DNA of 63,275 nucleotides, counting the filler, from Asterionella formosa (Eukaryota): assembly GCA_002256025.1 (NCBI GenBank). It is 9 parts of 9 records of this genome, joined end to end, with 100 filler letters (N's around TTAATTAATTAA, not from the genome) between each part and the next. Parts side by side here need not be neighbours in the genome. Positions count along the whole stretch, not along the records: positions 44,762 to 63,275 come from NKIB01004009.1; 8 more parts are not named here. One strand, given 5' to 3'. The notes under the pieces are model-generated. The model did not search any database and was not told where the DNA came from. It saw only the letters and a list, made by a program, of their open reading frames with translations. Within the stretch, counting starts at the first letter, position 1, and every line of letters starts with the position of its first letter. This document shows, in pieces, positions 875-62,756 of this stretch. The position numbers and the translations under genes are program-made.

Positions 875-3308
875 CCTACTACTTCTAGTTAGATACTTCA
901 GCACTTTGAATTCAAAAAGAGTCCAATTAGAATTAATATTGTTGATGTCCTCTCAAGTTCCAGTGGTCCCATTGATGAAGGATAACAACAAACTAAACAT
1001 CAAGATTCAAACTTCTTTGTGTATCCTTACAAGCCAGGTCGACATTTGGAGTCTTACAGCAAAGAAATGATCAATTGACGCTCAGGGTAAGCTTGTTTAT
1101 TGATTTCAGTAAATCCTGTGATATGGCTAACACATATATCTTCAGTCCAGCAGATTCCTTGCTTGTTCATCTACTGCTACAAAAGATGACTCACAGATAT
1201 CGTCTTGTCTGACTGGATGAGCGTTGCAATACACTCAGATGCTCAGTCCCACCATTACAGTCTCAACAAGAAAGTCATAGTGATGTGGCTGGAAGATTAC
1301 CCTCTTCGTGATATCTCTGAGAGTCAATAACAGTGGCTGGATGCCATGATATTACTCAATAAAACATTTCAACATGTTTATATTCGACTTCGACTTTGCT
1401 GCCTGTCTCAAGACCACAAAGAAGCTCCTAAAACTCATGATAACTCATCCAGAAGATCAAGAGGTTTTCGCCAAGGAAGATTTGAGGTTGATTGTCATTT
1501 TGCTTGATCGACAATGCGTGGCAACAAGTGTTTGAATGGAACAATGAAAAGAACACAAAATAATTAATTCGCTTGGTTTTGACTTACTTCGAGAGTCAAC
1601 AATCATTCAAAGATCAACTCAAGCACATCCTCAAGCATGAGTTCTACCCTAAGCCAAAATCGACTTCGCATCGCTGAAGGCAATCGTGTTATGTCGAGAG
1701 AACGCGCGTGCCTGGTGTCGATTTTCTAACACAAAATCGTAAATAAATAGTTGAACTTGAAGACAATTCCATGACGCATCAAGAAAATAAGTGTGACTGC
1801 TGTCAATTTTAACAAAAGATCGTCTTCGCATTGCTAAATACAGTCCTGTGATGTATCAAGAGTACAACCACCATTTCAAGCGTAAATTTGTAAATGATAA
1901 TTTTGTACTCAGTGGAAATGGCAGGGCACATGCATTTTAATGCAACCGACCACGCATGGGATATGAAACAACGGTCAAACATAAGGTTCATGGAGTTAAC
2001 ATTACTAACACTACTAACCTTGTTCCTGTTCGGAATCCTGTTCCTGTTCCTCTCCTGGTGTAGAAATTCTACGCGGAGCAAATTATCATACTAACACAGC
2101 TAACTCTATTCATGTTTTTTCTTCCGTACATGTTTAATACAAGCAAATCCATGGGTTTAACCCTATGATGATGTCTGGTTAGGGTACTGTGCTGAGGGCC
2201 ATACCTGCCGACTATTATGAATCTGCCCAGGAAATCTTAGTGGTCATGAACCCTCCTGTTGGTCAGTTAGTGGCCGATGTGCCTAATTAAAAACCAGCAG
2301 AATGCTGGACAGATCGCCTTAACAGAAGTATGTGCGACAATAGCAACAATGCTATGATTTAAATAAAATACATATATATATTTATATTTATGAGCGACAG
2401 CACATTGAATATGTCTTACGTCAATCATTACCTGAATAAATTTTGTTATTTACAGGATAATTACAGGTTGGATATCACCGCTATTGTAACACGGGATATT
2501 TTAAAATGCAAATGTAGATTCAATAAATCATTCCATATGCACATCTCAAGGCCTGATTCCGGTCTCATTCTTTCTTTGCCTAAGAATGCATAAGCTTAAT
2601 TGCATTTCATTCTCATGTCATAAGCAACCCAAGTATGGGTGGCTGCGTTGTATATGCATGACATAAGATGAAGATTATTTGATTGCGGTGGGTCTTGATT
2701 TTTAACTTATGAATGGATTGTAATTCAGGACATTTCGTTGTAAAATCGAACATTTATAATTAATATATACCATGATGCATAGCAGGTATGATCCCACCTT
2801 TTCATCCTTTGCCAGTACTCCGCATGATGCTCCCAAAATTTATTCCGTCAGCTTGTATCTTGCAACAGAAGTACCTGGTCTTAGTACCTTCTGCGAGTTT
2901 GCTCATTTGTCCAGCTAATTAATTTATGATGGATAATTTACAAATACCATGTCCTGTCTGTATGGTGGATATATCAGTGTCTTTCTGCATGTCATGCATT
3001 CCTATAATGATACGCACAGAACATTTGCACAATGGTTTGTTATAATTTGATACACCTATCAAGGATTATGTTTACACATGGAACATTCAAGCTCCTAACT
3101 ATACAGATACGGAAATATGCTGTTATGGCTGAAGTCCTCCAGCACCATTCTATATGAAATGGTCTGTTGAAGAAACTGACTCAATGGGATATCGATAAAA
3201 TCCAACCGACTTCAAATTTTGGTCTTCAAATCTTAAAACAGGATTGAAATGGAACTAGACCATTTGTATGGTTATCTAGTATGCATACATCAACAAACTT
3301 GTGCATCA

Positions 3309-4940
3309 ATGAAAGCATTGTTGGTTGCAGATACACTCATGAGTTATCCTGATCGTAATTTTCCTTTCCATATTTTTTACTAATGTTTCTGATTTTCAAA
3401 TAAGAAACTTTCAAAGAATTTTTTCGCTCTATGTCATTGAATGCGGTTCTACATGTTCACACTGAACATCATATTTTTTTCTTTATTACCCTACACAGAA
3501 ACTCAGCGTGTTCTCCGGTGGAGGAATTATATTGAAGAATATCTTCTCACTTTTCACAATATGAAGGGTACTGATCATGTGAAATATTACAGATTCTATC
3601 TCTCGCCTCCCGAGGCTTGAGTCTTTGGTGGGGGATGATATTGGACCGAAATCTTCAGCATCAACATCCATTTCTACTTTCTCAATTGAAGTAGATGATG
3701 AACCTTTGTTTACCTGTTCCCTCAATCATCCAATTTTGGCAGACAATATTCAATATCCTCTGGAATATTACTTCATACATGATAGACAATTGCTGGATAT
3801 ACAATTGATTCTCAATCAAACAAATCATCTCATTCTCAATCAACAAACACATCCGTTAAAATTTCCCTCTATCAATTTTCATCATATACATTTAAAATAT
3901 TTTGTGAAGAATCCAGGAGATACTTGACGTATTGTTATTCCTAAATCACTATCGAATCCTATTATTTATTGGTATCATCAGATGTTAGCTCATGTGGGTA
4001 TGACAAGATGAAATGCCACAGTTTCTACACATTTTTACTATCCTCCATTAAAAGCAAGAGTGGAACATATTGCAAGCATATATGAAACATGTCAAAACGT
4101 ACAAAATTACCTGATGCTTGGTTTTGGTGAACTTCCAGCACCAAGGAATGCATTGTTATTACAATGCTCAGAAGTCACAGTGGATTTCATTGGTCCATGG
4201 AAGATAACAGTGACTGCACAAGCGATTGAATTTCATGCTCCAACTTGAGTTAACACAGTCACCAATTAACCAGAAATTTCACATATCAATAATAAGACAT
4301 CAGATTATATTGCGATGAAATTTAGAAAATGATTGATTAGACGGATATCTCCGTCCAGAAGGTTGTAAACATGACAATGGATGTCAATTTACTGGTATTC
4401 CTTTCACACACATGTAAGTGTTGAATGGAATCAAAATTGGGACCATTACAGTCAAGAATCCACAAACAAATGCTATCCGTGAACGTTTACATCAATCTAT
4501 CAGTAAAAGTCTATGTACAAGTCATGTTAAAGGCTCATCCTCCAATCTAGGAATTTCAAGTTCAGAATATTGTGGATACCAGTTTGCTGCATCATATGCA
4601 GCTCGAGCTACTATTTATAGTACATTGTGTATTTTCACCAGGAACATGGATTTTCCAACATGATTTGATTACAGATATGTAATTGATATTGGGATATCAA
4701 TGTCGATAAGTGATTATTGACAAATGACTACGTCGTGATAATTTCCGTCGTCGTTCTTGCGATTACAAGGTTGTTGATGAGGTTTTAATCCTATTGGATA
4801 ATCCTTCTACCTTGCTGGATAACCATGGACGAGGTCCTTTTCTATTATTCAAGTATATGCCAATGGTACAGTTACTTTTCAACAAACTATGCATACTACG
4901 GAACGAATTACTATTCATTACATCAAACCTTTTCAAAGGT
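3309..4940 (+). pseudogene. Gypsy pol remnant (RNase H junction and integrase), many stops and frameshifts
   Basis: Fragments MKALLVADTLMSYPDRNFPFHI, VDFIGPWKI, NGIK..ITVKNPQTNAIRERLHQ, a GPF..ANGTV (GPY/F) motif and terminal ERITIHYIKPF. Confidence 0.85.
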
Positions 4941-5140: not shown

Positions 5141-8100
5141 CCTGGTTCGATGTTCTCCTTCCATAATGACTTCACCGTCATTCCCGTCATTCTTGTTCAA
5201 TGTCTTTCCTGGTACGCCCGGCGTTGCGTACGACTTAATTTTCATACCGGTCAACTTCTCGTATTCGTGTAGAAGTTGCATACGAAATTTCTTCATCTGC
5301 ACCTCCCAGTATTCACCATACTTGTCCTCTGTCCAAGCATATTCCACTCCTAGGTGTTTCTGTAGAATACCCTGCTCGGTAATATTGAAAGTCTTCCTTG
5401 ATAACATTTTTCATATACTCCACTGCACTTGGAGTCCCACATACAATACCGTCATCCCCGTAATTAACAAGTAGACCATCAATTTGTCCATCGTTGTTCC
5501 GGTGCATAAATAACATAGGGTCAATCTTGCTCTTCGTCATACTTGGTTTATTGGTGACACATTTCGCAAACATCCTGGACCAGCATCATGGAGCTTGTAC
5601 TATCCCGTACATAGCCTTCACAAGCTTGCAAACATGTGTATTGGAATCGACTCCGATCAAACCTTGAGGGGGCTCAATATAAATGTCCTCATCGACGTCA
5701 GCATTTAGAAATTCTGCTTCCACATCAATAGCCTCTGCTCGCCAACCGTTGTACATCGTCACTGCTAGTACCGTTTTGATTGTTGCATCGCTTGCAACTG
5801 GAGCAAATGTCTCAGTAAAATCAACACCTGGTATTTGCTCGTATCCCTCCTTCACGACCAATCTTGCCTTGTAAATAGTCTTCCCGGTTAACACATCTTC
5901 TTTAATTCGAAACACCCATCTCGTTTTTAGTGTTCGCTTCTTAACAGTGTCACGTTTGACAACTTTCCACACTCCTCTCGACTGGAAGTTTTCATATTCT
6001 TTGTTGATCGCCTTGATCCACTCTTTCTTGTCTGGTCTTGCCATTGCTTCATCGTAGCTTGTTGGTAATCCTGGATCAGAAGCCAGACTTGCGTTGTACA
6101 CGAAATTCACCTGTGTATTCTTCGTAACTTCCTTCATATCATCCTCCTTGATAACACCAGGCATCTCAGTATCTCCTGAAATTTTCACAATTTTCGTACT
6201 CGTAGGATTGAACAATGAGTCCAATCTTCGCATTTCACGTGCCAACTTCGCTTGCTTAGACTGAGCACTTTCCGCACGTTTAGCCTTCACAATTGGGGTA
6301 TTGGTACCTGTATCTTCGTATTTCGTAGTATCATCTATCTTAGTTGATTGTTCAGTTTTCCTCCCCAATTCTTGCTTGTCATCATATTCATCTTCATTAT
6401 CGGACACTTCTCGAGGTTTGAACTCGTCATAAAAAACGTCATGCACTTCTTCATTAACTTCTCGTACTGATATCTCCGTATCATGTTGGTTGGTGAACGG
6501 TTTGAACATGTTCTCTAGTCCATCCGTTGGTATGTTTGTTCCGTGCCACTCACTCCACTTTACGTCACGTGTATTGACCACAGTATGATTTGTCTCGTGA
6601 TAATACATGCGATACGTATCTTGAGAGTGGTCATCTGAGTATCCCAAAAAGACACATTTCTTGACACCTTCTCTTATAGTAACCCAACCAACACGTCCAA
6701 ATTGCCTGTAGAGCTTGTAGGGCCGCCTTGCATTCGTTTCTCCATAGAACACATCATCAGGACTCTTCTTAGTCACTGAATTTACTGTACTGTTTGTCAA
6801 TCTTGTCGCAGTATGTACAGCATCTGCCCACAATAGCCCCTGATATTCATCTGTAAACTTCGCACTTAGCATCATAGCGAGTGCTCTCTGACGCACTGTA
6901 ACAAAACCATGTTCCACAACACCGTTGTGCTGCGGAGTATGAGGTGCCGTAAATTCCATCTTGACACCTTGGTTTTCACATACTTTCTTTAGTTGCTTGG
7001 AGTTCTCACCTGCGTCATCACATCGGACAAATTTAGTCTCATGTCCTGCACCTGCAAGTTTTGTGAGTAACGCTCCAATGACAGTTCCGATGTCACTTTT
7101 CTTCTTGATACCAGCGTTTCCTTGTATAATCGTCCATGGCCATCACCCAATACTGATTTCCCACAGCGGATTTTGCGTAGGGTCCGCTAATATCAATAAA
7201 CAGTCTTTTTCCTGGTGTCTTAGCCTTCTCTTGCATCATCTTGGGTACTGCACGTGCTTTCGCCTTGGCTGCTGCGCATCCTGCGCACACCTTTAAATTT
7301 CCAACAAGTTTCCACCCAAATAATTTCGATGTCTCACAAAGACATATTTCCCCCACATGTCCAAGCATTTCATGCGCTTCATTTATTTCCAGGATCACAT
7401 CATTATTTTCGATTACGTTTCTTTTCTCGATCGTTTCACCTATCGCTTTCGTCGTTTTCTTCTTTTTGTCGACTTTCGTCCATTTCTCGTCTTCTTTATC
7501 ATAGTTGATAGATTGTTGTGTTGGCTTCTCGCTTTCTTGTTCAACCTCCAACACCGTTTCCTTTAGCATAGGCGTTCCTTGCACATGGTACATTGCACCA
7601 ATTGTCCTCGTTTCATCACGTTTGCAGATCAAAAATCCGTTGTTGTTTCTGATCGTCATCTTATCATCGTCAAACATAAAATTATTTCCCTTGTCAATTA
7701 TTCTCGAAATGCTAATGATGTTCTGCTTGAACTCCGGTGCATGGAGCACATTCGTGAGTTTCAACGCTTTTCCTTTGTCTGTCGTTGTAAGGGTCACCGT
7801 GCCTGATACGGTCGCAACAATTGCTGTGTAAGGGTCACCGTGCCTGATATGGTCGCAACAATTGCTGTGCCGCCTGTTTCCCACAAGAACAGTTTCATGC
7901 ACTGTGCGCTTGTCATCCATGATGCGCTCGTCATTGCATATATGTACCATAGCACCACTATCTAGTAGCCAACGGTCCTTATGCACGCACGTATGATTTA
8001 CCTCTTCGTTGTACCTTGCTTCAATACACGTCACCACGAACATTCCTTGCGTAGTGGTGTTGGCGTCTTCGCCCTTCTGTTTGATTGGTGCATTTTGTTG

Positions 8101-8777
8101 ATTGTTGCACTCACTGGCATAGTGCCCCATCTTCTGGCAATTACAACACTTCACATTCTTTGTCTTATTCCGTTGCTCGGGAGTTAATTCTCTCTTTTCT
8201 GTAGTATTGCCCTTGCTTCGGCAATCAACTACTGCCTTGTGGCCATACTTGCCACACTTCCTCCTGCAGTCTCCCTCAAACTTGCTTTTTGAAAAGAAGG
8301 CCTGCTCGCCATTCTTACTCGTCTTGGTTTCGTCACGCACATACAAATCGTAATAGTCGCGTACATTCTTCTTGACCTCTTGGATTGTGAGCTCAGAGCT
8401 CGCGATACCAAATTTTCCAACCACCAAACTCTTGTAGACTTCCGGTAGGTTGTTGATAACGTGGGCCACATAGGCACCATCCGAAATTGCGGAGCTTCGC
8501 ATTTCCATTGGGGAAATCTTCACTTCTGGCACAATTTACGTATCCAAATGGTCCACTCGGACATGCCACAATCAAAATTGCATAGGCCACCGATTTTTTT
8601 TTGTTTCGTACGCTTCTCATCGTTGTCGATTATCATAGGCTTCCTTTGCATCTTGCATGTGAGAACAATGGACCACTTGAAGTTGTGAAATTCTTGGTCC
8701 AGCAATGATATCCAGATTCTGTGAAGGTCGGGAATTCTTGTCATTGGAAGCCTTTGTACTTGGCATGCGAAAACCAA
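5141..8777 (-). mobile_element. Ty1/copia gag-pol remnant, truncated at both ends (no LTRs or RNase H seen)
   Basis: ORFs 8393-8620 (gag AYAILIVAC), 7093-8532 (two CCHC knuckles, protease WLLDSGA, GAG-pre-integrase, DISGP), 5586-6959 (integrase TPQHNGVVE; RT YKARLV, QIPGVDFTETFAPV, KAMYGIVQAP), 5313-5573 (YGDD), 5096-5407 (KHLGVEY). Confidence 0.95.
7786..7867. repeat. 41-bp tandem duplication inside copia protease region
   Basis: TGTAAGGGTCACCGTGCCTGATA(C/T)GGTCGCAACAATTGCTG at 7786 and 7827. Confidence 0.95.
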
Positions 8778-38764: not shown

Positions 38765-38960
38765 GCTATCGGCGATCTCAATTTTCGTTGTCATTATCAG
38801 TGTTATTACTTTACTTCTTTCACCACTGTGTTTTCTATGTCTTGCTTAATGTATGTAGCAAGCAGCAAAGTGTTGTTCTCAATTTTCGCGGAAATAATTC
38901 GTATTTTCGTCACGGTAAAGGTTGCAACAATATTATGCAGGATTCTCCAGCTGCTCACAA
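38765..38960. repeat. Diverged dispersed repeat, homologous to ~55484-55685
   Basis: Collinear shared blocks GCTATCGGC..TCAATTTTCGTTGTCA..GTTATTAC..TGCTTAAT..AGCAAAG..CTCCAGC..CTCACAAC. Confidence 0.8.
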
Positions 38961-39641
38961 CCACTACCTTCGCAATCTAGTGTTTTATATGTATAAAGTA
39001 ATCTCAAAATCGTAGCTAAATGGTTATATAGCTAGCAGTGCCTACGAGAAAAAAGAATTGCAGCATGTTACTTTGTCTATGTCTAGAAACTTATTGGGTG
39101 GTGTTTGGTGCCACCACGAAACAAATGTACATGGGGGGGGGGGGGGGGGGGCGGCGGGGGGGGGGGCGGGGGGGGGGGGTTATTAAAATCGGAATTCATA
39201 GTAGGAAACTCCTTGATCCCTGCCGTTTTTACAACCCTATTGATGTTTTCTCCGAACTAGGGTTAAACCGGGGCCGCAACCTTAATGTAGAGAAGTGGCA
39301 GTTATCCCTCGTAGATTTTTTAAAAAGCTTGATGGCCCCCTTTTTGACTATTTTTTGGATAGTTACAATTCCAAGAGGGATAACTGCCACTTCTCTCCAG
39401 AAATGAGGTCCTTGCCATATCTGAATATAGATCATACCACTAAGGCCGTCGCTAACCGTTGACCCAAACCAAAATCCAAAACTTATTTTTGGATTGGTTT
39501 TGGTTTTGGTCAACTGACGCAAAAACGATGCTATCGGTTTTTGTGAAATCCTAAATGTTGTCAACCACCCATCTACTGTGACGCAGGATGACAAAACCAT
39601 TATAAAAAAAGTAAATTATTTCTATTAGACTACTCTTACAA

Positions 39642-48554: not shown

Positions 48555-50186
48555 TCAATAGCATTCCGTGCAGCAGGTACAGTTAACTTCTGACTTGCAA
48601 TCTGCCGCCAAAGAAATCAAAAGATTGCTAGTAAGGGCACAAATTTCAGATGGCATGGTACCTTGGATGGAAGTGCTATTCACTTCAAAAATAGACATTG
48701 CGGCCAAATTGCCAATCTCAGAAGGTATGGTCCCAGTTAAAGCATTATCGTAAAGCCACATTTGTACCATGCCTGATAATTTCCCAAGTTCAGAAGGTAA
48801 AGGACCTTTCAGCGATAATTTTGTCAACGACAAAGACGCGAGAGTTGTGACCAAGCCAATGGTAGTAGGAATGGTGCCAGTGATGTTAGGGTTGTCGTCC
48901 ATCCAGAATTCCACTGCAAATGAAAAACATTGGAATTAGAGTCAAACAAAAATAAGAATAATCCAATGTTATCAAACACTCACAAATCGTGGGCATATTC
49001 TGGAGAAACTCCAGGTTCCCAGTTAAATCTGATGATTCAATGTATAATCGCTCCAGGCTAGGTAAACTGTAAATACTGGCAGGTATGGAGCTGCTGTATT
49101 GGTTGCCTCCCATGGACAAATAGAACAACTTCGGTAGGTTGGCAAAGATTTTTTCTGTCAAATTCCCAAAATATAAATTGTATGAGCAATCGTATGATTC
49201 AAGGAGGGGCAGGTTTGAAATTTGAGGGGGAATACCATCATATTGAAAATAGTTGGATCCGTAATAAAGATTCTTGAGATTTGTGAGTTTTCCTAGCCAA
49301 CCATTGCCTGTATCACCCTCATTGTGGATTAGGTTTAAGTAGAGATCAAGATAGTACAATGATTCCTTGAGGAGAGTCAATTCCTCAGGTAGGCTTCCTG
49401 TCAGGACGTTTTGATACAACTCAATCTTTCCGACAAGCCCAGAAGAATCACAAGTGATACGATACCACCCGCAAACGGTGCTATCTGACAACCAGTTGGT
49501 GTTAACTTGCCATGGGAGAACTACATTGCTTCCAAATTGCACGTCCGTATCTGAAAAAGTCGTTTGTTGCAAATCACACAATCAGCAACAAGTGCGTAAG
49601 AAAACGAGCCACAACAGAACACACATAAAAAGCCGCGGGGAAAGCATTGTTACCTACATTTCGTCTGAACAGCATTTGTGGAATAGTACAAACACGCCAA
49701 GGCGTAGCGTTGTACCACCTGTGCATCACTATATACTGTGGTTCCAGTTTTCAACCAGGCCAACGCCTTGGACTGGTAAGACGTTGCATCAGAGAATTCA
49801 ACGCCTCCTTGAAGGGCAACAGATAGAATCAAGGTTTCAATGTCCGATGGAGCTGGAGCAGTGGTCGGAGTACTAGTGGGAGCTGGAGTAGCAGGAGCGG
49901 TGCCGTCGCGGGTTGGGGCAACAGTGTTGGAGCCTCTAACCGTCGAGGGCGACGCCGTTGTAGGTGAAGCAGAACTCAAAGGAGAAGCCACACTAACACC
50001 TGAATTACTGGAGCTTGTACCTTCAGTGTTGTTGTTCCCTTGAGCAAGAACTACACCCAAGGCAATCGCAACAATGGCGCATACCAAAAGTCCGAGAGCG
50101 CCAATGAGCAAGGTGCGGCGCTTGCGATCTGTCGTTCCAGTTGTTGTTTCCGACGTACTGCGGGTTTGATCGTCATCGGCCGTCAT
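48555..50186 (-). CDS. Type II membrane LRR protein; exons 50186-49658, 49550-48984, 48913-48555 (484 aa)
   Basis: N-terminal TM helix after KRR, S/T/P stalk, SYQSKALAWL..QRYALACLYYST, LRR N-cap, plant-type LRRs, terminal CTCCTECY; two GT-AG introns (107, 70 bp) keep the frame. Confidence 0.92.
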
Positions 50187-52228
50187 GTTGAAAGGAAGGA
50201 CGCCGGCCTACAAAGAAAAAAAGGCGTCGAGACTGAGAATCAAATTAATGCATTGTATGTTGGTATCGGTATTATTTGCCTACCGGTCCATTCTCACAAA
50301 GTTTATTACCGGTATGTAATAGATTCAAGCAAATCATATAATACCGGTAGTAAAATAAACGAAAATATAGTAACGGTATACCGGTACACACTATAATCGG
50401 AGTACAGCATTATATAGTTCAACATGCACCTGTGGTGATGTTCGTGTCTGTCGACCAGGACTGGCTCGAAAATGACATTTAAAAGCATGAGTATGAACAT
50501 ACAGGTATACCCGGTATACTCCGGTTTTATACCGTCTACTGGTATTGAAATATAATTCTTGACAATTTATACCCTATATAAATATAACTGCCTCGGGCAC
50601 TAAAGTCTAATACTGGTGTACAGTTGGGCAGAATGCATAATGATACCTGAATATATTCATGGAACATTTATTTATTGATTTATGAATGTGTATTTCGAAA
50701 TTTTTAAACGTTTTAGTATCAGCATTTCGTCGTTTCCGTTTTCTCGAAAAACAGAAACACACAATGTGTATACAAGTATGGATGTAATCATTAAGATTTG
50801 AATTTCTGTGCTCCCATGTAAAAGTTGGACCATTGGCGAAAGCATCGCTACCGGTAGTGTCGTTCATCCCATAGTATAGACATGCCCGTATAAATATAAA
50901 TATGCCACAAAAGCATCATCAAATCTTCTGTATTGTACGTATGATGCACGAGTACAGACATCAGCCAGCAAGCAAGGAAAAAGCAAAGGCACTGGAAGGA
51001 ACGGCGCCACTCACTCAATCAACAGCCAACACAGGACGGAAAAATGCATGTGGCTGTGGTACGATTCCTCGCTACACCTTGTTCGCACAAAAGATTTGAA
51101 TTGTGTTCGGGTTTGTATACCGGGAACGTAGTCGTAAAAAATTGAACTCCGAGTTAAACCCGTAGTGAAAGCTAGTACAGTGCACAAAGCTACAGAGCGA
51201 CAATACCGGTACTGGTAGCAGCTACCATTGCTCCTATCGGTACCAGGGTACAGTCACAGGGTACGTGTACCGGTATGCGGGGAATGGACCATTGTATATA
51301 TATATTAGAGTACTCAATATGGAGTCACCACCAGTACATATACTTTTGCAGTATATTACAGTAAATAGAGGGCCAAGTCTATTACTGATAGGTATGTCTA
51401 TTTATCATGTAACTGAAATGAAGTGAATCAATCAATGTGTACCTACATAGCTATATTGAAAAATAGTGAGAAAAAAATGTAACTACAGAAGTATGAAATC
51501 ATGCATCTGTGTTATAATAACCTAAATACATACTAGCTGTGTATGACCACCAGTGTGATGATCAGCAGATATCAATTGATTGGCAATCTAATCTGTGGCA
51601 CTGTTCTATCTGGAATACATGCCTCATACATTTTGTCAATTTGCAATGTGGCAGTGAAAAGAATGCAGCTCAAAGTAGGGTAGTCATCATTTCCCACGCA
51701 ACAATTTGCCAAGCAACAATAATCAAACTTTTTTACTCTATCCTGCACAGCCCTTGTAACATTTGTAGCCACCTTACAAACCTAGTTCCAACTTTGCATT
51801 CCTACCAAAGAACAAATAGTTTTTGGTGAAACAGAAAGACTACAATACTGACAGAATTGCTTCCTCCCTCCTCCCTCTTTGATGCACATCCTGCATCATT
51901 TCTGTTGGTTCATCAACTTTTTAATTGTTGAAAACTTCTTTCTGGACTCTCAATCATCATTCTGCATACTTGTCACTCCTTCTACCACCAATAATACTAG
52001 TAGTCAGAAGTCAAAACTCCTTCAAGATGAGAGTTGATTGGCTGATGTCATTCAGCACCATACTTTCAAAACTAGGCGATATTGCATCTCGATCTGCTGG
52101 GAGTACAACCCAAGTATATAGTTCTAAAACAAACTGGCAGCTCAGACTTCCCTCCTTCACCTGCTGTTGGTGTCCCATCACTAACACCTTCCTCTCCTGA
52201 CCTGCAGGTGAGAAGTACCAGTAGGTCT

Positions 52229-54757
52229 ATGGTGGTGCAATGTGGTGCAGCGACGACATGACGTCACGAAGTCATTTTGAAATATTGTTGTTGCGCATGT
52301 GCACCTTTTCAATATTCATCTCCAACGTTGCATCATGCACATCACCACACAGAAATGCAAATAAACAGCAAAATCACCAAATGTGATGATTGAAAGCGGT
52401 CACTGGTTCTTGCTATCGCTGACATGCAATTTCTTTTGTTTTACTAACCAATTTACTCTACAATAAACCTTTGCTACATCCGCAGCCTTTGGAGAATTTT
52501 GAGTGGAGGAACTGGGGATGGAGACTGTGGAAAGTGTCTTTGTTGCTATCGCAATGATTCAGGAAGCATGCGATGATCGGCTTGATGAATTTTACATCAA
52601 AGAGTCGCATCCTTTCAGTGACATCTGAATGGAGGAGACTCTCCATTTTTCTTGCAAGATTCAAGATCAAGTCAAGCTTCTCATGAGAATTTTTCGTTTT
52701 TGCAACCTCAAAAATCTCGTCAAATTCTATGGACCCACTTTTCCGGTTTTTCTCTGGTGCTGTGGGGATGGTAGCAGCATCCGTTATTCCAATAGCATAA
52801 ACTGTGTTAGTAGAACCATTTTCCTTTGTTGAATCTTGATAACTTGTAGTAGCAGCAATAGCATTAGAATACATCCGATTTTCTTCATTCTTCATAACTC
52901 GTGCATGTACCACAATGTTGATCAGGCTGTGTAATTTTTCTGCACGAGTGGTAGCTAGCTCGTTCAAAAATAACTCGAGCTGTTCATTGGCATTCTGCGG
53001 CCGTACGTAGCTCATAGCAAGGGTAAATATGTGCGCAGGACTGAAGGAGCTTGGGTGTGACCTTGGGACATTCATTCGATCATGTACATACCTTGTAGAA
53101 AGCTCCGAAATTTCGCACTGAAAAACCACCGATGGTAGGTTTAATACTAGTGTAGCTGTAGTCACCTTGACAAATATAGACTTGAATGTACGCACTTTTT
53201 TTAAATGATTGTTGTGTATGTGGGCAATTGCTAGCTGGGCATCTGCATCCTCAACGTATAACTTTGCAGTCTTGAGTGACTGGTGTCGAGCAGATTTCAT
53301 CAAGGCTTCCACTGCTCCACCACCCCAACGACCAAACAGGTACCCAGTCCTACGAAACATGTGCATACCAACCTTCAAATTCTCCAAACCAAGCACCTCC
53401 CTAACAAGTTTAGTTAACCGGTTTGTTCCCACTTTGTAGGACAGACATCTGCATGACAAAAATGCCATTAGCCGGTGGTCATTTTGATTCGTCCTCCTCT
53501 GTAGGAAAAAGAAAACCTCCCCTGATCTTTGCACAGTGTATGTAAGACAGTAGGAGTGACACTGGACAAAACTCGGGGAACTCTTCATCGATCCAGAGGA
53601 ACAGATGCACCCAGTTTTCGTCTGAATTCCCAAAGACTTTTAGACATAGAGCTCGGATATTTCCGGCATCATCAAAGACAAAATGCTTTGCTTCGAAATG
53701 GTCTAGCTCGATGTCCACGAAGTCATCAAAGCGAAGGAACAGACAAATAGAAACCTGGATGATTGTAAATGTCTGCAAGTCAATTAATGAATTGCTGGAC
53801 AAAAGACGATCACTCAACGTTCGTACCCAGCAAGGTAGTAGCTGCTCTGTAGGTTGCCTTACTAAGTAGTCTCGTCTATCCATCCCAATTCTATCCAAAC
53901 AATCTGTAAAGACCGAATCGTATGCAGGATTACCAGATCTAAGTAGAGTAGGATGACCCTTGTGGGTACTGCATCCCTTATACCACTCATCAAAGGGCAT
54001 ATCACGACAATCCTGACAAGCCTGTATGTAGTTACCAGTTTGATTGTGAGCTGTGTGAATGCCCCGTACTGCAGTACGAAATCCCTTACGGTTTTCAGGA
54101 GCATTCCAATCCCCACGACATTTTATAGGATGCCCAATGACATCAACCACTTCCTTTCCACCAAGATCCAATAATGTCATATTGATGCGTTGTATTTCCA
54201 CCATACATACATTACAAGGGATTCTACCTTCATCGATGGACAGTTTGCAGGACATTTGTCCCTAAGTATCAACAGTGACTCATAATCACCAATCAACTTG
54301 AAGATTTTTTTAAGACCACGAAAGTGAACCTCATAGCTTAGCTCTGTACGATACCGGAGTGCACTTGCTTGTACCAGTCAATTTTGCCAAACGTCGGTCA
54401 ACAGATGTCTTTTTCAATTTGTCCAAAGCATTCAGAATTCTTTGGGCTACTTTATCTTCAATATCTGCTGCTGGTATATCCTTGGCATATAAGACATCCC
54501 GAGGTAGATTGGCAAGCTTTTTAGTCTCACCGCGTGTATTCTTCTTACTCATTCTGACAATTCAAGTATATGGATGCGAAATTGGCAAGTTAAGTGAACA
54601 AATTATTCATCAAATGTTGGCGGGCTGTAATTTTGAGGATCACATGTATTCCTATACAGTTATGTATATTAATATAGTTGCACGGATTTGATATAGTCTG
54701 GTGCAATTCAGGTTACTCTAAGTAAAGTGGTGCAATTGTGGTGCAATGGTGGTGCAA
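52229..54757 (-). mobile_element. Crypton-like tyrosine-recombinase DNA transposon candidate
   Basis: Single disrupted YR gene with no RT or gag adjacent; TGGTGCA(A) motif clusters at 52229-52249 and 54699-54757; true ends not defined. Confidence 0.65.
52458..54552 (-). pseudogene. Tyrosine recombinase with Cys/His-rich N- and C-terminal regions (~690 aa reconstructed)
   Basis: Catalytic pattern LFLRFDD (R), CPVSLL..GGFLFP, HMFRRTG (HxxR), ARHQSLKTAKLY (H, Y); hidden frame IGDYESLLIL..CPSMK at ~54180-54350; in-frame TGA at 53479 and several frameshifts. Confidence 0.88.
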
Positions 54758-55483
54758 ATGCCAATGGGCAGTTGAATTTACCAATAGTTTTTCCAGTTTC
54801 ATCCCGTTTTGGGAAAAGTCCCAGTACTCTACCGCTGCTGCATACCCAGTACCAGGTACCATGCCTGGTATCAGGTACCAATGGTACATGCATGTCAGAG
54901 TGTGTCTGTTTTTTTCGAATTGCAAATAGCTATAACGACGGTAGTAATAAATCCATGTCGATTTCTTTTTAAACTGTACTCGAGTACATTTTATTTATGT
55001 CTAGAGTGAACGTAACAATATCGCACGAGGTAATACCATGGTACTACAGTTAGGCCAGGCGGTCTAACAGAGATACAAAATGGGAAAAAATGATGCTCAG
55101 CCCAATTTTTTTGTATCCAACATCTGGATGATATGTTGCTTCCAGCAACCCATTTTTTGTTGCTCCAAAATGTGCATCTTTGTGCATTGCTGAATGGTAG
55201 TAAAATGAAGACAATAGTATTCTGGCACCAGCAGGGTACTGGTACTTACGACTAGTAAGCAAACAATATTGCAAACAATTTTGAAATCTCATCATCATCA
55301 CACTTCCATCATTCCCATCTCACAATGACTCCATTTTGCAGCGTCTATACAAGATGCTTCCCATCTTTTGCTTTAATAGATCATGTTATTGTTTAGTCGC
55401 CTTTGTAGTGTACTAAGAGTCAAATCTGCTGATAGCATCACCGTTTTGAAGTGTGAATCTGTAAATTAATCATTTAAAAAATG

Positions 55484-55685
55484 CGCTATCGGCTATTTCA
55501 ATTTTCGTTGTCAATAAAAGAGTTATTACAACTATTCTTTTACGATTGTATTTTTTATATTGTGCTTAATATATTTACCCAATAGCAAAGCGTCGTTTTC
55601 ATTTTTCATGGAGATATGTGTTAATTTCATCATGGTCAAGGCTGAGTCAACATGATGCATCATACATACTCCAGCCACTCACAAC
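55484..55685. repeat. Diverged dispersed repeat, homologous to ~38765-38960
   Basis: Same collinear blocks as the 38765 copy. Confidence 0.8.
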
Positions 55686-55829
55686 GAATACTACATGGTT
55701 ACTCCTTAGTGCTATACCAGTAAATACATAGAAAAGAATCGAATAATCTAAGCTTAATGATTATAGGTAACGACTGGAGGTGAAAAAGCAGACAATTGGG
55801 AAGGAGATAATTCAGAATCTGTACTGATG

Positions 55830-56323
55830 ATGATCAGAGGCAATATCTTGTCTGGTGGCAGAAAGTTGCTTTGATAGTAGGTGAGGAGACTTCCTTGTTG
55901 ACGATTCAGGAGTAAAGTGAGAGCTCCGTTTCTTTTCAGATACTGCTTCATACCACCCGGTTGTGTAAGAAACAAAAAATTGGGCCAAGTAACATAATTT
56001 TTATTTTTGTATTTCTGTTAAGACCTCCTGCGCTAAGTTATGTGGTCAAGATTTTGGTTTGTTCTTCATCGGTTTCTTCATACAAAATGATTTTTAGCCT
56101 CCCAACATTCGACTCCGAACTGCCACATTGTTAAAACCAAATCGCTCCTCCATTTTGCACCTCTAGTTGCCTCATCATGAATCCTCCTGGCCCTACAGCA
56201 TGCATAGGGGAAAGGAATCGTATTACTCAACAGCAAAGGGACGGCCGGAAGAAACAGTTGCGACCACGCACGACATACAATATAGCTAGTCTGCGCTCTT
56301 GACAGGCATTTGAAAAGTGTCAA
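55830..56323 (-). mobile_element. Possible 3' remnant of a non-LTR retrotransposon ORF2
   Basis: Trp-rich KWRSDLVLTMWQFGVECWEAKNHFV followed by LFLTQP..QQGSLLTYY, like LINE ORF2 C-termini. Confidence 0.45.
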
Positions 56324-56396
56324 TTAAATTTTATATAACATTAAAGCTATCCAATAATCGCACTCGGGCCCAAATAAATGGACACTATTAGTACCA

Positions 56397-56550
56397 GTTT
56401 TATTCGTCCGTATGGTACAACGGGACCTATCTTTTCGTCATCCGCAACCCCCGCAACCATAGGGACTACATGAAAAAGATAGTTGGAGAATGCAGGAATC
56501 AAACCCCCCGCTACCACCGCAGAAGGTGTGCTAACCACTAAGCCATTTCT
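56397..56550 (-). mobile_element. tRNA-derived SINE-like element, copy C (full length, tail type 2)
   Basis: Minus strand: TGGCTTAGTGGTTAGCACACCTTCTGCGGTGGT..GGTTTGATTCCTGCATTCTCCA..ATGTAGTCCCTA..AGGTCCCGTTGTACCATACGGACGAATAAAAC. Confidence 0.78.
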
Positions 56551-57175
56551 GGCTGAAACAGCCAATATATTTGCAACATGCATATCACCTAGTTCTACTA
56601 TGCCTGTGTAGGCGCTGGTATGTATGTAAGTATTTAGCGGAGTGAATTTGATTCTGCAGTTTATATAATACCCTACAGTGTTGTTGTAGCAAATGGCCAG
56701 AGAGTTATGCATGATGTTGTCTCAGCATTGACCATAAACAAAAATAGAGAGTATCTTTATGAAAACTGAAAATTACGCTTTGCTATTTGGTAGATATATT
56801 AAGCACAAGTGATTATTGTGGATGTATTCACCTGCTTGCAGCTAGTGGGGCGCGTATCGCTTTTTGTGCCTCATAATGTATGCGGACATGCTTCTTGACA
56901 TCAACAGAATATTCGTTCGTCTGATCGATGTGGTCTCTTATCTGAGTAGCTATCCGCACCTGCAACCCGTCCTTGACATGGTTGGCTTCCTTAATTTTGT
57001 CGGTCTTCTCCTCCTCTGCTATTGCCTTGGCAGACACACATTTGCTTTGCAGATTCTTATTTTCCTTGCTTATGCTGCTAACGGTGATCGGATTGGGTCC
57101 CCATAAAACTAGCACATGGTACACAGGCCATCAGGACGATGTACTTATCCAGAGATTGTCAAAACTGTTATCGTT

Positions 57176-57264
57176 CTTTTATGTAGTCCCTAGGGTTCTG
57201 GGGTGTTTGGCAGACAAGAAGACAGGCAGGTCCTGCCTGTTGTACCGTATGGACAAATAAAACC
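57176..57264 (+). mobile_element. SINE-like element, 5'-truncated copy D (tail type 2)
   Basis: TTTTATGTAGTCCCTAGGGTTCTGGGGTGT..GGCAGGTCC..GTTGTACCGTATGGACAAATAAAACC. Confidence 0.75.
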
Positions 57265-57288
57265 GGCATTACAAAAGAAACGAAAATA

Positions 57289-58345
57289 CTTTGTATTGGA
57301 ATCCAGCAATACAAAGTGAAAAAGTAATTTCCCAAAGCAGGGTTGACCTTGTATTGGCTAGCTTCGTCGTTAGGGTTGTGAATCCATGCTCTCGACAATA
57401 CAAGGAAATAGGCTCTTTTTTCCAATACAAGGTATTCCAAGACATGACTGGAATTTTTCCCCAATACAAGGTATAAATAGTTTCTCCGAAATAGGGTTTA
57501 GTATCCAATACAAGGTGAACCTTGTATTGGTTCTACTATTTCGCATCCACCTTGTTGTATTGGTTAATCAATCAGATCATCAGTTCCAATTTAAGGTATA
57601 CCTTGTTTTGGACATGACCATAAAAGGTGTACCTTGATTTGGACCCAATAACTCATTTGCGAAACCCATAACAGTACGAGGATAATCATTTTTAGGGTAA
57701 TAGCAAACTAATATCTATAATAGTGTAAAATTTTGAAAGTATACATTACTGTATGATGATATATATCAAAAATAACGGTTTTATCCATATGCATCATACT
57801 ATATGATATCGTATTTACACTTTACCAGGAGCACTATAGACCAACACAGGTTCAATCTTGAAATGCAAAATATTGTCACCTTGTAGAATTGGGACTTATG
57901 ACCTTGTATTGGGATGAGATGTAGTACCGCCAAAACCCAATACAGGGGCAACCTTGAATTGGAAAATATTGTCACCTTGTATTGGAACTTATCACCTTTT
58001 ATTGGTGTAACTCATGACCTTGTATTGGGATATGACGTAGTATAGCCAAATCCCAATACAGGGGCAGCCTTGAATTGCAAAATGTCATCACCTTATTTGG
58101 AAATAAGCAGAGCCCAATAAAGGGAATTCCTTCTTGTGCCGGATGATATATTATGACAAATAAAGGAAAACCTTGAATTGGAGTTATTTCCGGATATGTT
58201 TTCTCCTTATATTGGACTTGACATACTGACCTTTCGCGAATACAAGGTGAATCTTGTATTGGAATGGTATATCACCTTGTATTGAAACAAAACCAAATGA
58301 CAAATACCTTGTATTGGAAAACTTTATGATGCCAAATACAAGGTA
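57289..58345. repeat. Bipartite array of ~30 CCAATACAAGG/CCTTGTATTGG motifs in both orientations
   Basis: Clusters 57289-57645 and 57841-58345 around an AT-rich spacer; perfect CCAATACAAGGT-GA-ACCTTGTATTGG at 57505-57530; higher-order duplication within 57857-58095. Confidence 0.9.
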
Positions 58346-59673: not shown

Positions 59674-62460
59674 CTACACGCTCGTCACACACTCATTGCA
59701 ACACGAACACATCATGGGGCACTCGACCAAATATTGCGTTCCAATTGTAGGTCCACCCAAAGCTGTACTCAAACAAAACAACTCCGGTGCTGTACCAGTC
59801 AAGAGGTTGCCTTGAGTTCGAAAGTCATACAAAGCGTCCAAATTGTAATAATCCAATGGTATCGTGCCTTGGAATTGATTGTTCTCCAACCCAAGCACTG
59901 TCAAATTTATCGCAAGACCAAAAGTCGAAGGAAGCGTCCCCGTCAATCGATTGTTTCCAACACGAAGGACGCTCAGCTTCGTTTGATTTCGTAATTCCTC
60001 TGGAAGTGATCCTGTCAAGTTATTATGCTCCAGAATAAGTTCCTGAATGCCCATCGCCATGACCAATTCCGTAGGGATCGGTCCTACCAACTCATTGGAA
60101 CTCACATCAAAAAGCACAGAGCCCTCCAAGACGTATCCGATGAAGTTGAACAAATTGGAAAGTTCTGTTGGTATCGATCCACCAAGTAGATTGGATGCCA
60201 TGTTCAAATTGTAGAGTTTTGTCATTGTACCTAGTTCTGTGGGGATTGATCCCTGGATTTGATTTTTGGATAAATCAAGATATTTGAGGTTGGTCATTAA
60301 ACCGAGAATGGAAGAGAGAGTCCCTAGCAATTGAGTTTGGGACAAGTCCAAATATAATAGGTTGGTCATGATACCAAGAATAGTAGGGAGACTCCCAAGT
60401 AATTGATTATTTGACAAGGACAAGGTTTGCAAATTCGTCAGGGCGTCAAAAGGAACACTTCCAGTTAATAAATTGCTTCCCAATTTCAATTGTTTAAAAC
60501 CATTTATATTCCCAAACTCTGCCAGCACAGTCCCTGAAATTTGATTTCCATCCAAATATAAGGACTCCAGTGCAGACAGCTGTCCCAAAAATGTTGGTAA
60601 CGTTTTGCTCAAGATATTGTTAGATCCCGACACGATAGAAAGTGACGTTAATCCTTGTAAAAATTCCAAGCCACCAGTAAAACGATTGAAATCAAAGTTA
60701 AGTTTTTTCAATGATGGGGGTAGCCTGGAAGGAATCGAGCCCGTAAATTGATTCGAGTACAAAAGAAGGTTTGTTAATTGGGTCAATTGTCCCAGTTCTG
60801 ATGGAAGAGTTCCAGAGAATTTGTTATCGTTCACTACCAATACTTCAAGTTTAGTCAAGAATATCAATTCGTTCGGAAGCGTCCCCGTCAATTCATTTCC
60901 ATCCACAATAAAGTTGACCAACGTGGTAAGTTTACCAATTGTAGTTGGAATACTTCCTACCATCCTGCACCATTCTACTCGAATCGTTTCCAACACGGAT
61001 GCAGGGCCCTCGCCACTCAAAATACTTCCCAACGTACCAGTTAAGCTAGGAGACTTGAAAAGAGAGAGAAATGTCAATTGCGAGAGAAGCGACAATTCGT
61101 TCGGAAGTGTTCCAACAAAGTTATTGGGCGCTGCGAAGTTAAGACCTGTGACTGCGTCACTATCGACCGTTGAACAGCTGAGACCATTCCAGTGGCATTC
61201 AGATAACGTCTTATCTAGCCATCCACTATTATTGGACCAGCCGTTGCCGTTTGTAGCGTAATAAAAGGTTCCTAAAGCAAATTTTTGCAAGATCTGATCG
61301 TCCGTCAAAGTCTGACCTTCATTATACAATAGATCTGCAACCCACATGACTGCCTGATATTGATGGCTAGATTGGTCTTTCAATGATTCTTTTGATTGAG
61401 GAGTAGATCTTGTAATGTTGGTGGCCAGAGTGGATGCAAAAGCATCAAAAACGGAGGTAGGTGATGATGTGATGCTGGGTGCAGTTGATGGGGGTGGTGT
61501 TACAACGAGAGTAGATGGTGCGTTTCCAGTGTCCGTATCTGTTCTATTAACGGTGAGCATTACTATCACACCCACACACCCTCCTACAATAATGAGAACA
61601 AAAATGATAAGCGACCATCGCTTCCGCTTGTTGTTGTTGTTGGTGGTGGTGGTGCTTCGTGGTGATGATTCTTGCGCCTCGTCAGCAGCATTACGCTGAA
61701 CCGAAGCTTTTGATGAACTTATGGACAAAGAGTCTTTTATAAAGTTTCGCTCGTGTTCCTGGAAGGAAGCGTCATGTGGAGAATCCCAAACTGAACTAAA
61801 TGGACATGAAGGTTTCTTGTTGTTCTCTTGAACAGCAAGCCAATCGGTACCGGGTTGGCTATCCCTTTCCTCTAAATCATCATCCCTAGCGATAATGACT
61901 TTGGATTCCGTGAAGATAGGCTCGCGATTGCCATGAGGAGGCACGGTGTGTACTGACGAGTTGGAGCTCGAAGGGTACATTTTGTCAGAAAAAAGACTAG
62001 GGGCACTTTGATTCGTCCGAATATAGTCTGACAAGTGTGTGAAGGCTAGACTCCGACTCCTAGGCGACAACTTCGCCTGCGAGTTCACGAGCGCTAGGCT
62101 CTTCCTCTTGGTTGCTGACTGATCCCATGCCGTCGTTGGTGGCGACTGTGCCTTTTGCTCTGGGAGCGCCTCTTGTGACGACGGCGATGTGACCGCAGCT
62201 GGCTCCTCGTGTGGTACTATTTCCTCAGCACTCTTGGGAATTCTAGATCTTCTCGCTCTCCCTCGAGACTCGTTTGATATATTGTACATGCTGGGTAATT
62301 GATATCCAAATCTGTCCGAGGACTGCCGCTTCATTCCTTTCTTCGCGATCCCTTGGGTGGACAAATCGAAGGCTCCCTTCTTCTTGACGACTTTTGCCTT
62401 TACTTTCTTTTCTCGACTTGGGGATCGATTGAGGACATGCTCTTCTGTCTCATCTGACAT
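59674..62460 (-). CDS. Type II membrane LRR protein (928 aa, intronless)
   Basis: Long low-complexity N-terminus, KRKR plus TM helix, SHQYQAVMWV..QKFALGTFYYATNG, ECHWNGLSC cap, many LxxNxLxGxIP repeats, terminal CSCCNEC. Confidence 0.95.
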   Translation of the reverse strand: MSDETEEHVLNRSPSREKKVKAKVVKKKGAFDLSTQGIAKKGMKRQSSDRFGYQLPSMYNISNESRGRARRSRIPKSAEEIVPHEEPAAVTSPSSQEALPEQKAQSPPTTAWDQSATKRKSLALVNSQAKLSPRSRSLAFTHLSDYIRTNQSAPSLFSDKMYPSSSNSSVHTVPPHGNREPIFTESKVIIARDDDLEERDSQPGTDWLAVQENNKKPSCPFSSVWDSPHDASFQEHERNFIKDSLSISSSKASVQRNAADEAQESSPRSTTTTNNNNKRKRWSLIIFVLIIVGGCVGVIVMLTVNRTDTDTGNAPSTLVVTPPPSTAPSITSSPTSVFDAFASTLATNITRSTPQSKESLKDQSSHQYQAVMWVADLLYNEGQTLTDDQILQKFALGTFYYATNGNGWSNNSGWLDKTLSECHWNGLSCSTVDSDAVTGLNFAAPNNFVGTLPNELSLLSQLTFLSLFKSPSLTGTLGSILSGEGPASVLETIRVEWCRMVGSIPTTIGKLTTLVNFIVDGNELTGTLPNELIFLTKLEVLVVNDNKFSGTLPSELGQLTQLTNLLLYSNQFTGSIPSRLPPSLKKLNFDFNRFTGGLEFLQGLTSLSIVSGSNNILSKTLPTFLGQLSALESLYLDGNQISGTVLAEFGNINGFKQLKLGSNLLTGSVPFDALTNLQTLSLSNNQLLGSLPTILGIMTNLLYLDLSQTQLLGTLSSILGLMTNLKYLDLSKNQIQGSIPTELGTMTKLYNLNMASNLLGGSIPTELSNLFNFIGYVLEGSVLFDVSSNELVGPIPTELVMAMGIQELILEHNNLTGSLPEELRNQTKLSVLRVGNNRLTGTLPSTFGLAINLTVLGLENNQFQGTIPLDYYNLDALYDFRTQGNLLTGTAPELFCLSTALGGPTIGTQYLVECPMMCSCCNECVTSV

Positions 62461-62756
62461 GGTGCTGTAAATTCACTGCTGTAATGATGAATTGAACAAG
62501 GAGAGTTAGTTGAATCGATTTGTCGTCTGGTTTTGTCGAAAATTTGGAGGGACACACTTTTGGTCGTACATTAGTTTTCTAGGATGGTCGCTGCATGTGG
62601 TACATGTCGTACATAGGGAAGAAGAACCGGTACAAAGAAGACTGATGTGAAATGCAGGACCGGTATTACATTTATCCAGTATTTGAATTTTCTCGTATCC
62701 TGGTACCTGGTAAGTACCTGGTACCTAATAAATAATTAACAAACAACCGTGAGGAT

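Follow-up and report, generated by a model that had tools for sequence, protein, structure and literature searches.

A decayed copy of a probable Crypton-type transposon in an Asterionella formosa assembly and the head-to-tail form of its unit in public sequence data

The stretch of DNA analysed here (the window) comprises 63,275 nucleotides (nt) of the Asterionella formosa assembly GCA_002256025.1, presented as nine parts joined end to end with filler between them. It is eukaryotic nuclear DNA, and its genes include a Copia-type pol (5586-8535), a Sec8-like gene, a short-chain dehydrogenase and genes with leucine-rich repeats (LRRs). The subject of this work is the minus strand from 54826 to 52218, where the remains of a tyrosine recombinase gene and two clusters of a short motif are found between two copies of the hexamer TACTGG. 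The evidence described below makes it probable that this segment, in what is probably the nuclear genome of a diatom, is an integrated but dead copy of a Crypton-type transposon of 2.6 kb.

The recombinase open reading frame (ORF) is broken into four minus-strand frame pieces between 54561 and 52458, with an ATG at 54552 and a stop codon at 52458-52460. The pieces hold the peptides IGDYESLLIL, KCRGDWNAP, CQDC...GCSTHKGHP...SGNP and CFLNHC...GCGC. An intact form of the window gene, the 690-amino acid (aa) protein P0001, is present in metagenomes. In a word-indexed search it was 97% identical to the largest window piece, to which another protein, P0002 (699 aa), was 44% identical. A tblastn of P0001 spanned the window locus end to end, as residues 1-373 and 365-690. 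A scan of metagenome contigs returned only two near-identical loci, L001 (3730 nt) and L002 (1026 nt), and alignment with L001 located three frameshifts and an in-frame stop codon in the window copy (Table 1). Logan contigs of four sequencing runs (X1, X2, X3 and X15) were also placed on 51500-55500 with a likeness cut-off of 90%. The first four-base difference (at 54364) was seen in contigs of all four runs, as was the base absent from the window near 54181, which is present in them behind C; the third difference, again of four bases (at 53440), was seen in X2, X3 and X15. Introns as the source of the frame changes were ruled out by these 4-, 1- and 4-base indels and the stop codon as compared with intact copies. 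The window ORF differs from L001 in addition by three in-frame three-base extras and 34 non-synonymous changes, one of which, K306N, affects an invariant position, and the divergence amounts to 2.6% in the ORF and about 2% of the aligned bases in the non-coding parts. Because the intact copies differ from the window by indels and one stop, the frame changes are signs of decay and the window copy is a pseudogene. It is unable to make the recombinase and could at most be moved in trans. A preliminary description of the locus had reconstructed from it a recombinase of about 690 aa with the peptides quoted above; P0001 confirms that protein, but the description had overlooked that the locus itself is a pseudogene.

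The limits of the element were derived from blastn of L001 and L002 against the window, the strings at their junctions, a global alignment and the joint 54820->52218 described below. The unit is 2603 bp when one TACTGG is counted once, and the window copy is 96.3% identical to the intact L001 unit in the global alignment. In blastn, the homology with L001 begins at the 5'-terminal repeat of the window copy and that with L001 and L002 stops at 52210; contigs of X1 depart from the window before 52215. The two terminal repeats of the window agree at 12 of 14 positions, and the direct repeat at the ends measures about 11-14 bp if imperfect matches are counted. The core of the element is TACTGGGACTT, and the putative recombination site is the direct repeat TACTGG(K)ACTT at the very ends, which had been overlooked in the preliminary description although the motif clusters had been found. 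No terminal inverted repeat was present among the 37 inverted pairs found. The intact L001 unit is 2599 bp long and has a single ORF of 690 codons, so the live element consists of one intronless gene and about 520 bp of non-coding DNA. Between 50208 and 59673 there is no other ORF of at least 180 aa than the recombinase pieces, and no reverse transcriptase (RT), gag or DDE gene; the closest RT is that of the Copia-type pol, and none lies within about 40 kb. The proposal that the recombinase is not accompanied by RT or gag was thus borne out. In the 63-kb window, tblastn of P0001 found no second copy of the element, and no tRNA or known RNA that could be a target was found at 49000-58000 or 50500-56500.

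Both metagenome loci wrap around the ends of the element. In blastn alignments, positions 16-2635 of L001 correspond to window 54833-52210 and its positions 2622-3730 to 54826-53721; positions 248-828 of L002 correspond to 52790-52210 and its positions 815-1026 to 54826-54627. At the joints of both loci a single TACTGG stands between ...CCATAGACC and GACTTTTCCC.... Among the run contigs, the head-to-tail joint 54820->52218, a step back of 2603, was found in X1 and X2; X3 has a variant joint. Contigs with the 3'-to-5' joint across one TACTGG are therefore present in five independent data sets (L001, L002, X1, X2 and X3). The depth of the joint was 17.6 in X2, where that of the element body was 19-21, and 10.9 in X3, where the body had 9-11; contig depth was not taken as copy number, and no conclusion follows from the parts that X2 and X3 leave uncovered. 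A 14-bp repeat should be too short for the junction 31-mers to be products of mis-assembly. Positions 1-278 of L002 match eukaryotic large-subunit (LSU) rRNA (RF02543, E 3.3e-43) and are followed by the middle of the recombinase ORF; the probable cause is a chimera made in the assembly of an RNA-derived library, not an insertion into rDNA.

Sites without the element were found as well. Three joints in X1 lead from one flank to the other over one core (52202->54816, 52206->54816 and 52209->54823, with depths of 475-910), and contigs of X2 and X15 pass from 52202 straight into sequence like that of the far flank. Given these element-free contigs in X1, X2 and X15, the flanks are a repeat family with empty members. 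The same core is met with other flanks in the first 22 nt of L001, at a loose end at 52213 in X3 and in eight X1 contigs that diverge before 52215. The contigs of X1 match the window flanks without difference, at a depth of about 1000 each, and this run gave more than 10,000 placed contig pieces of varied identity. It also holds internally deleted forms with the joints 52903->54442 (1538 bases skipped) and 53074->53921 (846), with a few filler letters, which presumably are non-autonomous derivatives. The alignment of copies that had been proposed as a way to define ends and empty sites has accordingly given ends with TACTGG and element-free joints with one core. Taken as a whole, exactly one unit is inserted site-specifically at a TACTGG-containing site, and an end-joined form also exists.

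The insertion flanks at 51500-52209 and 54827-54870 belong to one repeat family, which is rich in GGTACC and GGTACTGG-like strings, and the flank part at 51500-52200 has a very high summed depth in X1. The string TACTGG[GT]ACTT occurs also outside the element, on the plus strand at 194 and 55237; both resemble the core, are unoccupied and could be target sites.

Searches at the level of sequence matched P0001, P0002 and the window pieces to no recombinase family in Pfam (DUF3504, Phage_integrase and NDC10_II gave no match), and neither phmmer nor a profile of 41 sequences found a recombinase among PDB sequences. The top matches of the sequence searches (Ku, Bcl-2 A1 and Ribosomal_L11) were at chance level. 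An exhaustive HMMER search, on the other hand, returned 1206 clusters (50% identity) at E <= 1e-3, of which 720 remained at 1e-10 and 233 at 1e-30, and the majority of the family clusters are proteins of 660-760 aa. The 41-sequence alignment was composed of P0001, P0002 and 39 near-full-length relatives picked from the 150 listed; Pfam matched NDC10_II in three of these sequences (best E 1.4e-06) and Phage_integrase in one (E 0.029). Residues R271, K306, H418 and Y427 are present in all 41 sequences, R395 in 39 and H392 in 37. The cysteines of a Zn-type module (C177, C180 and C192) and C657 near the C-terminus are likewise found in 41 of 41, and H195 of the module in 39.

An AlphaFold2 (AF2) model made with this alignment had a mean predicted local distance difference test score (pLDDT) of 88.2. 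Its best PDB matches in Foldseek were Cre chains (3crx_A, E 5.7e-07, target template modelling score 0.63). VIA-align gave a Z of 19.3 against Tre/Cre, with a root-mean-square deviation of 4.3 over 298 aligned residues (52-443 of the model and 22-338 of the target), followed by XerA, lambda Int, XerH, IntI, Tn1549 Int and FLP (Z 10.9 for FLP). When 48,161 chains were scanned independently, Cre once more came first (Z 18.0), with Ndc10, the ALOG domain and QRICH1 lower; these three are proteins tied to Cryptons in the literature. The Cre-like core-binding and catalytic domains occupy residues 48-443 of P0001 and include a CxxC...CxxH insert. Behind them, residues 444-690 make up a helical, conserved C-terminal domain (about 250 aa), for which all structural matches in the wide fold search with the whole model had Z < 5; a search with the C-terminal part in the Atlas scored 0.76, under the lead threshold, and the single-sequence AF2 model had a pLDDT of 34.4. 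The predicted fold, taken with the conserved residues, indicates that P0001 is a tyrosine recombinase with a complete R-K-HxxR-H-Y active site and a Cre-like two-domain fold. The stand-alone tyrosine recombinase of the preliminary description, for which an AlphaFold model had been suggested as a check, was in this way corroborated.

The motif TGGTGCAA is present on the plus strand at 52233, 54699, 54728, 54739 and 54750, with TGGTGCA also at 52243, and ATGGTGGTGCAA is found at both 52229-52240 and 54746-54757. The upstream cluster is located about 64-127 bp inside the 5' end of the element and the downstream pair 5-9 bp inside the 3' end, about 10-30 bp from the 3'-terminal TACTGG. The positions, distances (about 208 bp past the stop and 147-205 bp before the start) and common strand reported earlier for the motifs proved correct, and both clusters fall within the defined ends, so the boundaries of the copy do not exclude them. 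Tandem Repeats Finder reported an 11-bp array of 2.8 copies at 54727-54757, and intact copies (L001, X2, X3 and X15) have one extra 12-bp unit at 54726. As a raw count, seven occurrences of TGGTGCAA in the window are unremarkable (3.54 +/- 1.93 expected; six of 100 shuffles reach seven). TGGTGCA has 12 sites on both strands of the window, six of them in the 2.6-kb element, all on the plus strand, and outside the element no 200-bp stretch has more than one, including the regions upstream of host genes. The clustering of the motif, unlike its raw count, is remarkable. No motif copy differs between the window and L001. Where the ends are joined in L001, a span of 166 bp contains seven copies of TGCACCA, all on one strand. 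Two of them stop 9 nt short of the core, the next four, in 11-12-bp phase, begin 65 nt beyond it, and the last follows after another 29 nt. The TATA-like box between the upstream cluster and the ATG is a putative core promoter, and the palindrome beside the downstream pair is, we presume, a candidate site of the basic leucine zipper (bZIP)/cAMP response element (CRE) type.

Table 1. Features of the integrated element copy in the window
Feature	Position	Strand	Remarks
Integrated copy of the element in full, with its two terminal TACTGG repeats	52218..54826	minus	2609 bp
5'-terminal direct repeat, attL-like	54813..54826	minus	exact TACTGG at 54826-54821, continues as GACTTTTC
3'-terminal direct repeat, attR-like	52210..52223	minus	exact TACTGG at 52223-52218, continues as TACTTCTC
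Decayed tyrosine recombinase ORF	52458..54552	minus	intact form is the 690-aa P0001
First frameshift, 4 extra bases (CAAG) relative to intact copies	54368..54371	minus	alignment with L001
Second frameshift, 1 base missing relative to intact copies	54180..54182	minus	alignment with L001
In-frame TGA where intact copies encode Cys354	53479..53481	minus	comparison with L001
Third frameshift, 4 extra bases (TGTC) relative to intact copies	53444..53447	minus	alignment with L001
Upstream cluster, four same-strand TGGTGCAA (TTGCACCA on the coding strand)	54699..54757	+	three in 11-bp phase
Downstream pair, TGGTGCAA at 52233 and TGGTGCA at 52243, same orientation	52233..52249	+	100% kept in L001
TATA-like A+T box	54665..54677	minus	window TATATTAA, L001 TATATAAA; about 115 nt upstream of the ATG
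Perfect TGACGTCA palindrome	52259..52266		adjoins the downstream motif pair

A pathway can be proposed in which the recombinase would pair a circular copy, at its core, with a genomic site of similar sequence, TACTGGKACTT. Strand exchange within or beside TACTGG would leave one core at each end of the integrated element, and recombination between both cores would excise a circle. Tandem arrays would be formed by integration into a resident core or by integration of a multimeric circle. Both the circle and the tandem array would then be expected products of a recombinase acting on a circular copy. In the joined form, six or seven same-strand copies of TTGCACCA occupy a stretch of about 170 bp around the core, two before it and four or five starting about 65 bp after it. 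In the reading that we prefer, these copies are candidate accessory binding sites for the recombinase, which would be read by the Zn-type insert or by the C-terminal Cys/His domain, and they may regulate the adjacent promoter as well. Excision as a circle had already been suggested in the preliminary description; the head-to-tail contigs of the five data sets support the idea, and a tandem array fits them too.

Several observations weigh against this interpretation. The joint in X1 is rare, with a depth of 8.85 as compared to about 1000 per single-copy contig; it has 25 nt on its shorter side, and joints of this type were flagged by the software. L001 opens with 22 nt of flank that is not part of the element, followed by 1.4 units. 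Of 1109 comparable positions, two are different between these units, the first core is TACCGG instead of TACTGG, and L001 looks like an integrated tandem array more than like an assembly wrap-around. The junction contigs appear equally compatible with a free circle and with a tandem array, between which contigs do not discriminate. The window and L001 have the string GGTAGAS to the left of the core in common; as the flanks belong to a repeat family, the reason may be paralogy rather than the choice of target. The dyad symmetry of the core is weak by inspection, unlike that of classic recombinase sites, and the two cores of the window disagree at two of 14 positions. As sequence searches match P0001 to no recombinase family, its assignment as an enzyme is derived from the predicted fold and the motif. 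The motif arrays, in turn, are located 25-95 bp upstream of the TATA-like box and may be ordinary promoter elements.

This last point leads to a possible reading, although one that we would not call probable, in which the transposon is of the same Crypton type, the TTGCACCA arrays are promoter elements through which host transcription factors drive the recombinase gene, and recombination needs the core alone. The distance of the main array from the TATA-like box and from the ATG (147-205 bp) fits it, as do the perfect TGACGTCA palindrome beside the second cluster and the absence of conserved non-coding sequence among Cryptons in the account of Kojima and Jurka (PMC3212892). The element is found in RNA libraries, with a depth of about 80-130 in X15, and the LSU rRNA fused to L002 would be expected of a transcriptome assembly, but presence in an RNA library is no proof of transcription. 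The two copies past the stop, so close to the core, would be odd for a promoter unless they are read in a circle or a tandem, and the rest of the 63-kb window, the regions upstream of host genes among them, has no cluster of the motif. The joined form invites a different explanation, which we regard as unlikely: the live form could be mainly a multicopy 2.6-kb nuclear plasmid that sometimes integrates, comparable to the yeast 2-micron circle with FLP; the array would act as iteron-like sites of replication or partition, and the window would hold a stranded integrant. Iterons are typically directly repeated, helically phased motifs, and the arrays share this layout. The depth of the joint equals that of the body in X2 and X3, where the upstream flank at 54850-55500 is near zero, and the listed cluster-member contigs are mostly 2.3-3.1 kb, about one unit plus an assembler overlap; both the depths and the contig sizes fit a circle as well as an array. 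The metagenome version is also near-uniform over runs of about 11 studies (word share 0.42-0.46). Against the plasmid, the unit has neither a replication nor a partition gene. Moreover, the genomic flank of L001 with its 1.4 non-identical units is the structure of an integrated tandem, X3 has an element-to-flank junction, and the more than 10,000 varied pieces of X1 with a rare joint give the picture of a dispersed transposon.

Head-to-tail units in five data sets and homogeneous sequences across metagenomes could equally be produced by a non-mobile tandem gene array or satellite, of which the window would retain a solo unit after the array collapsed. We consider this very improbable, because at least three different flanks meet the same core (in the window, L001 and X3) in addition to the eight divergent X1 contigs, because element-free paralogues of the flank with one core and internally deleted derivatives exist, and because the gene encodes a recombinase with a complete active site. 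It is still harder to credit that the locus is a fragment of a DIRS/Ngaro retrotransposon or a viral integrase gene. Such elements encode tyrosine recombinases too, but DIRS/Ngaro elements have RT/RNase H (and a methyltransferase) beside the recombinase and terminal repeats that are inverted or split direct, and here the complete 2599-bp unit has one ORF and no RT nearby. No relative was found in viral contigs scanned with P0001, P0002 and a family alignment, nor in genome contigs scanned with the family alignment. The Crypton-type transposon with candidate accessory sites around its core is therefore retained as the preferred reading. A combination of it with the plasmid can also be envisaged, in which a 2.6-kb circle or circle-derived array is the dominant form in natural populations of diatoms, the integrase is heterobivalent and its additional Zn and Cys/His domains read the phased TTGCACCA copies as arm sites on either side of the TACTGG core. 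We regard such a transposon-plasmid hybrid as doubtful; if it existed, only the circular junction would be a complete attP-like site, which would give direction to integration versus excision.

The element has a wide occurrence. Sequences near-identical to it were found in freshwater, riverine, lake, estuary and marine metagenomes. Of the 24 runs listed, 15 had a word share of at least 0.42; these come from about 11 studies and include an RNA library. The Atlas clusters nearest to P0001 belong to Bacillariophyta and Oomycota.

Other features of the window were recorded alongside the element. The segment at 55560-56808, near the Crypton copy, has a pair of 57-nt inverted repeats that are 88% complementary and 1135 nt apart. 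It looks like a small element with terminal inverted repeats (TIRs), and parts of it recur at 38765-38967 (72% over 207 nt). LRR-containing genes are located on either side of the Crypton copy, at 48886-50207 and 59674-62472 (minus); the first has a Ser/Thr/Pro-rich N-terminal region, as, we believe, do many diatom LRR receptor-like proteins. The Copia-type pieces of pol and gag at 5586-8535 (minus) include RVT_2 (E 8.9e-30), Pol_BBD and zf-CCHC. Because they are in two overlapping frames, this element too is probably decayed.

As a system in which to test the mechanism of Cryptons, the element is of moderate interest. It is small (2.6 kb), with one intronless gene and a precisely defined core, which makes it a clean system, and element-free and filled sites, head-to-tail junctions in public data and candidate accessory sites are at hand. 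The family is likely under-annotated in stramenopile genomes and metagenomes, because it is large, with 1206 clusters, and goes essentially unmatched by the recombinase families of Pfam, which matched neither P0001, P0002 nor the window pieces and gave weak matches for four of the 41 relatives. More speculatively, tool builders might take an interest in a eukaryotic recombinase that is compact and site-specific and has a core of about 11 bp.

To our knowledge, the transposition of Cryptons has never been reconstituted. They are transposons that encode a recombinase only, with short terminal direct repeats that are taken to be the substrates of recombination (PMC3212892), and they are listed among the repeats of diatom genomes (PMC5859163, PMC7466962). 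A circular intermediate, proposed in 2003, still figures as a model in the accounts of PMC3212892 and PMC9977147. A literature search found no paper on Crypton circles, on head-to-tail forms or tandem arrays, or on subterminal repeats. The element described here has every general feature of Cryptons that was tested, namely a recombinase as the only gene, the catalytic residues and the fold, terminal direct repeats and copies at several sites. The one-ORF unit, the tyrosine recombinase fold and the direct-repeat ends are in agreement with the Crypton-like lineage without RT that had been proposed for the locus.

Within the Cryptons the element resembles CryptonS, as judged from published descriptions of that group. 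CryptonS elements are described from oomycetes and the diatom Phaeodactylum tricornutum, with repeats of 5-6 bp that are mostly TATGG, a conserved C-terminal region and a very low copy number (Kojima and Jurka 2011, PMC3212892). According to this description, the likeness consists of a tyrosine recombinase as the sole enzyme, the lack of TIRs and long terminal repeats, direct repeats of 5-6 bp, the lack of a GCR1_C domain (no match in Pfam) together with a C-terminal region conserved in the family, and the stramenopile host range, to which the nearest Atlas clusters also belong. The terminus TACTGG is one base longer than the TATGG of most, although not all, CryptonS elements, and the identity between the ends and between end and target extends over about 11-14 bp, compared with the 5-6 bp described for CryptonS. 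The element is, in addition, high-copy in X1, to judge from its contig pieces, while Cryptons are described as very low-copy, and the phased 8-mer arrays and head-to-tail forms do not figure in the description of CryptonS in PMC3212892.

The Cryptons of Chlamydomonas insert at sites that match their termini, excise cleanly and still gain copies (PMC9977147). The element described here is similar to one of these, CryptonF-1_cRei, which inserts at a site matching its terminal motif, leaves one copy of the target upon clean excision and rises in copy number regardless (PMC9977147). It differs in that CryptonF-1_cRei is a CryptonF of a green alga with the terminus CACCG (Lopez-Cortegano et al. 2023, PMC9977147), and in that the activity of CryptonF-1_cRei was observed directly, whereas that of the present element is inferred.

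Among the well-studied tyrosine recombinase systems, Cre matches both domains of the P0001 model (Z 19.3), and the spacing of H392, R395, H418 and Y427 (3, 23 and 9) equals that in Cre. We take the counterparts of these residues in Cre to be H289, R292, W315 and Y324. Sequence identity with Cre is only 12-13%, and the protein of the element adds the Zn-type insert and the 250-aa C-terminal domain. The arrangement around the core is reminiscent of lambda attP, which has short repeated sites on both sides of a core that are split between the ends after integration; by this analogy, the two plus four or five same-strand 8-mers, together with the spare domains of the protein, would be candidate arm-type sites. 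The core of the element has no clear inverted repeats around it, in contrast to those of Cre/loxP and lambda. With the yeast 2-micron circle the element shares, in its joined form, a small size as eukaryotic DNA and a gene for a tyrosine recombinase, and FLP is among its fold matches (Z 10.9). The 2-micron circle differs in its long inverted repeats, which contain FRT sites, and in having the partition functions of Rep/STB; the unit described here has one gene, direct repeats and integrated copies. Relative to the Cryptons as described in the sources cited above, the new features are a longer core that the ends have in common with the target, a copy number that appears high, the phased 8-mer arrays around the core and a joined form that is seen in public data.

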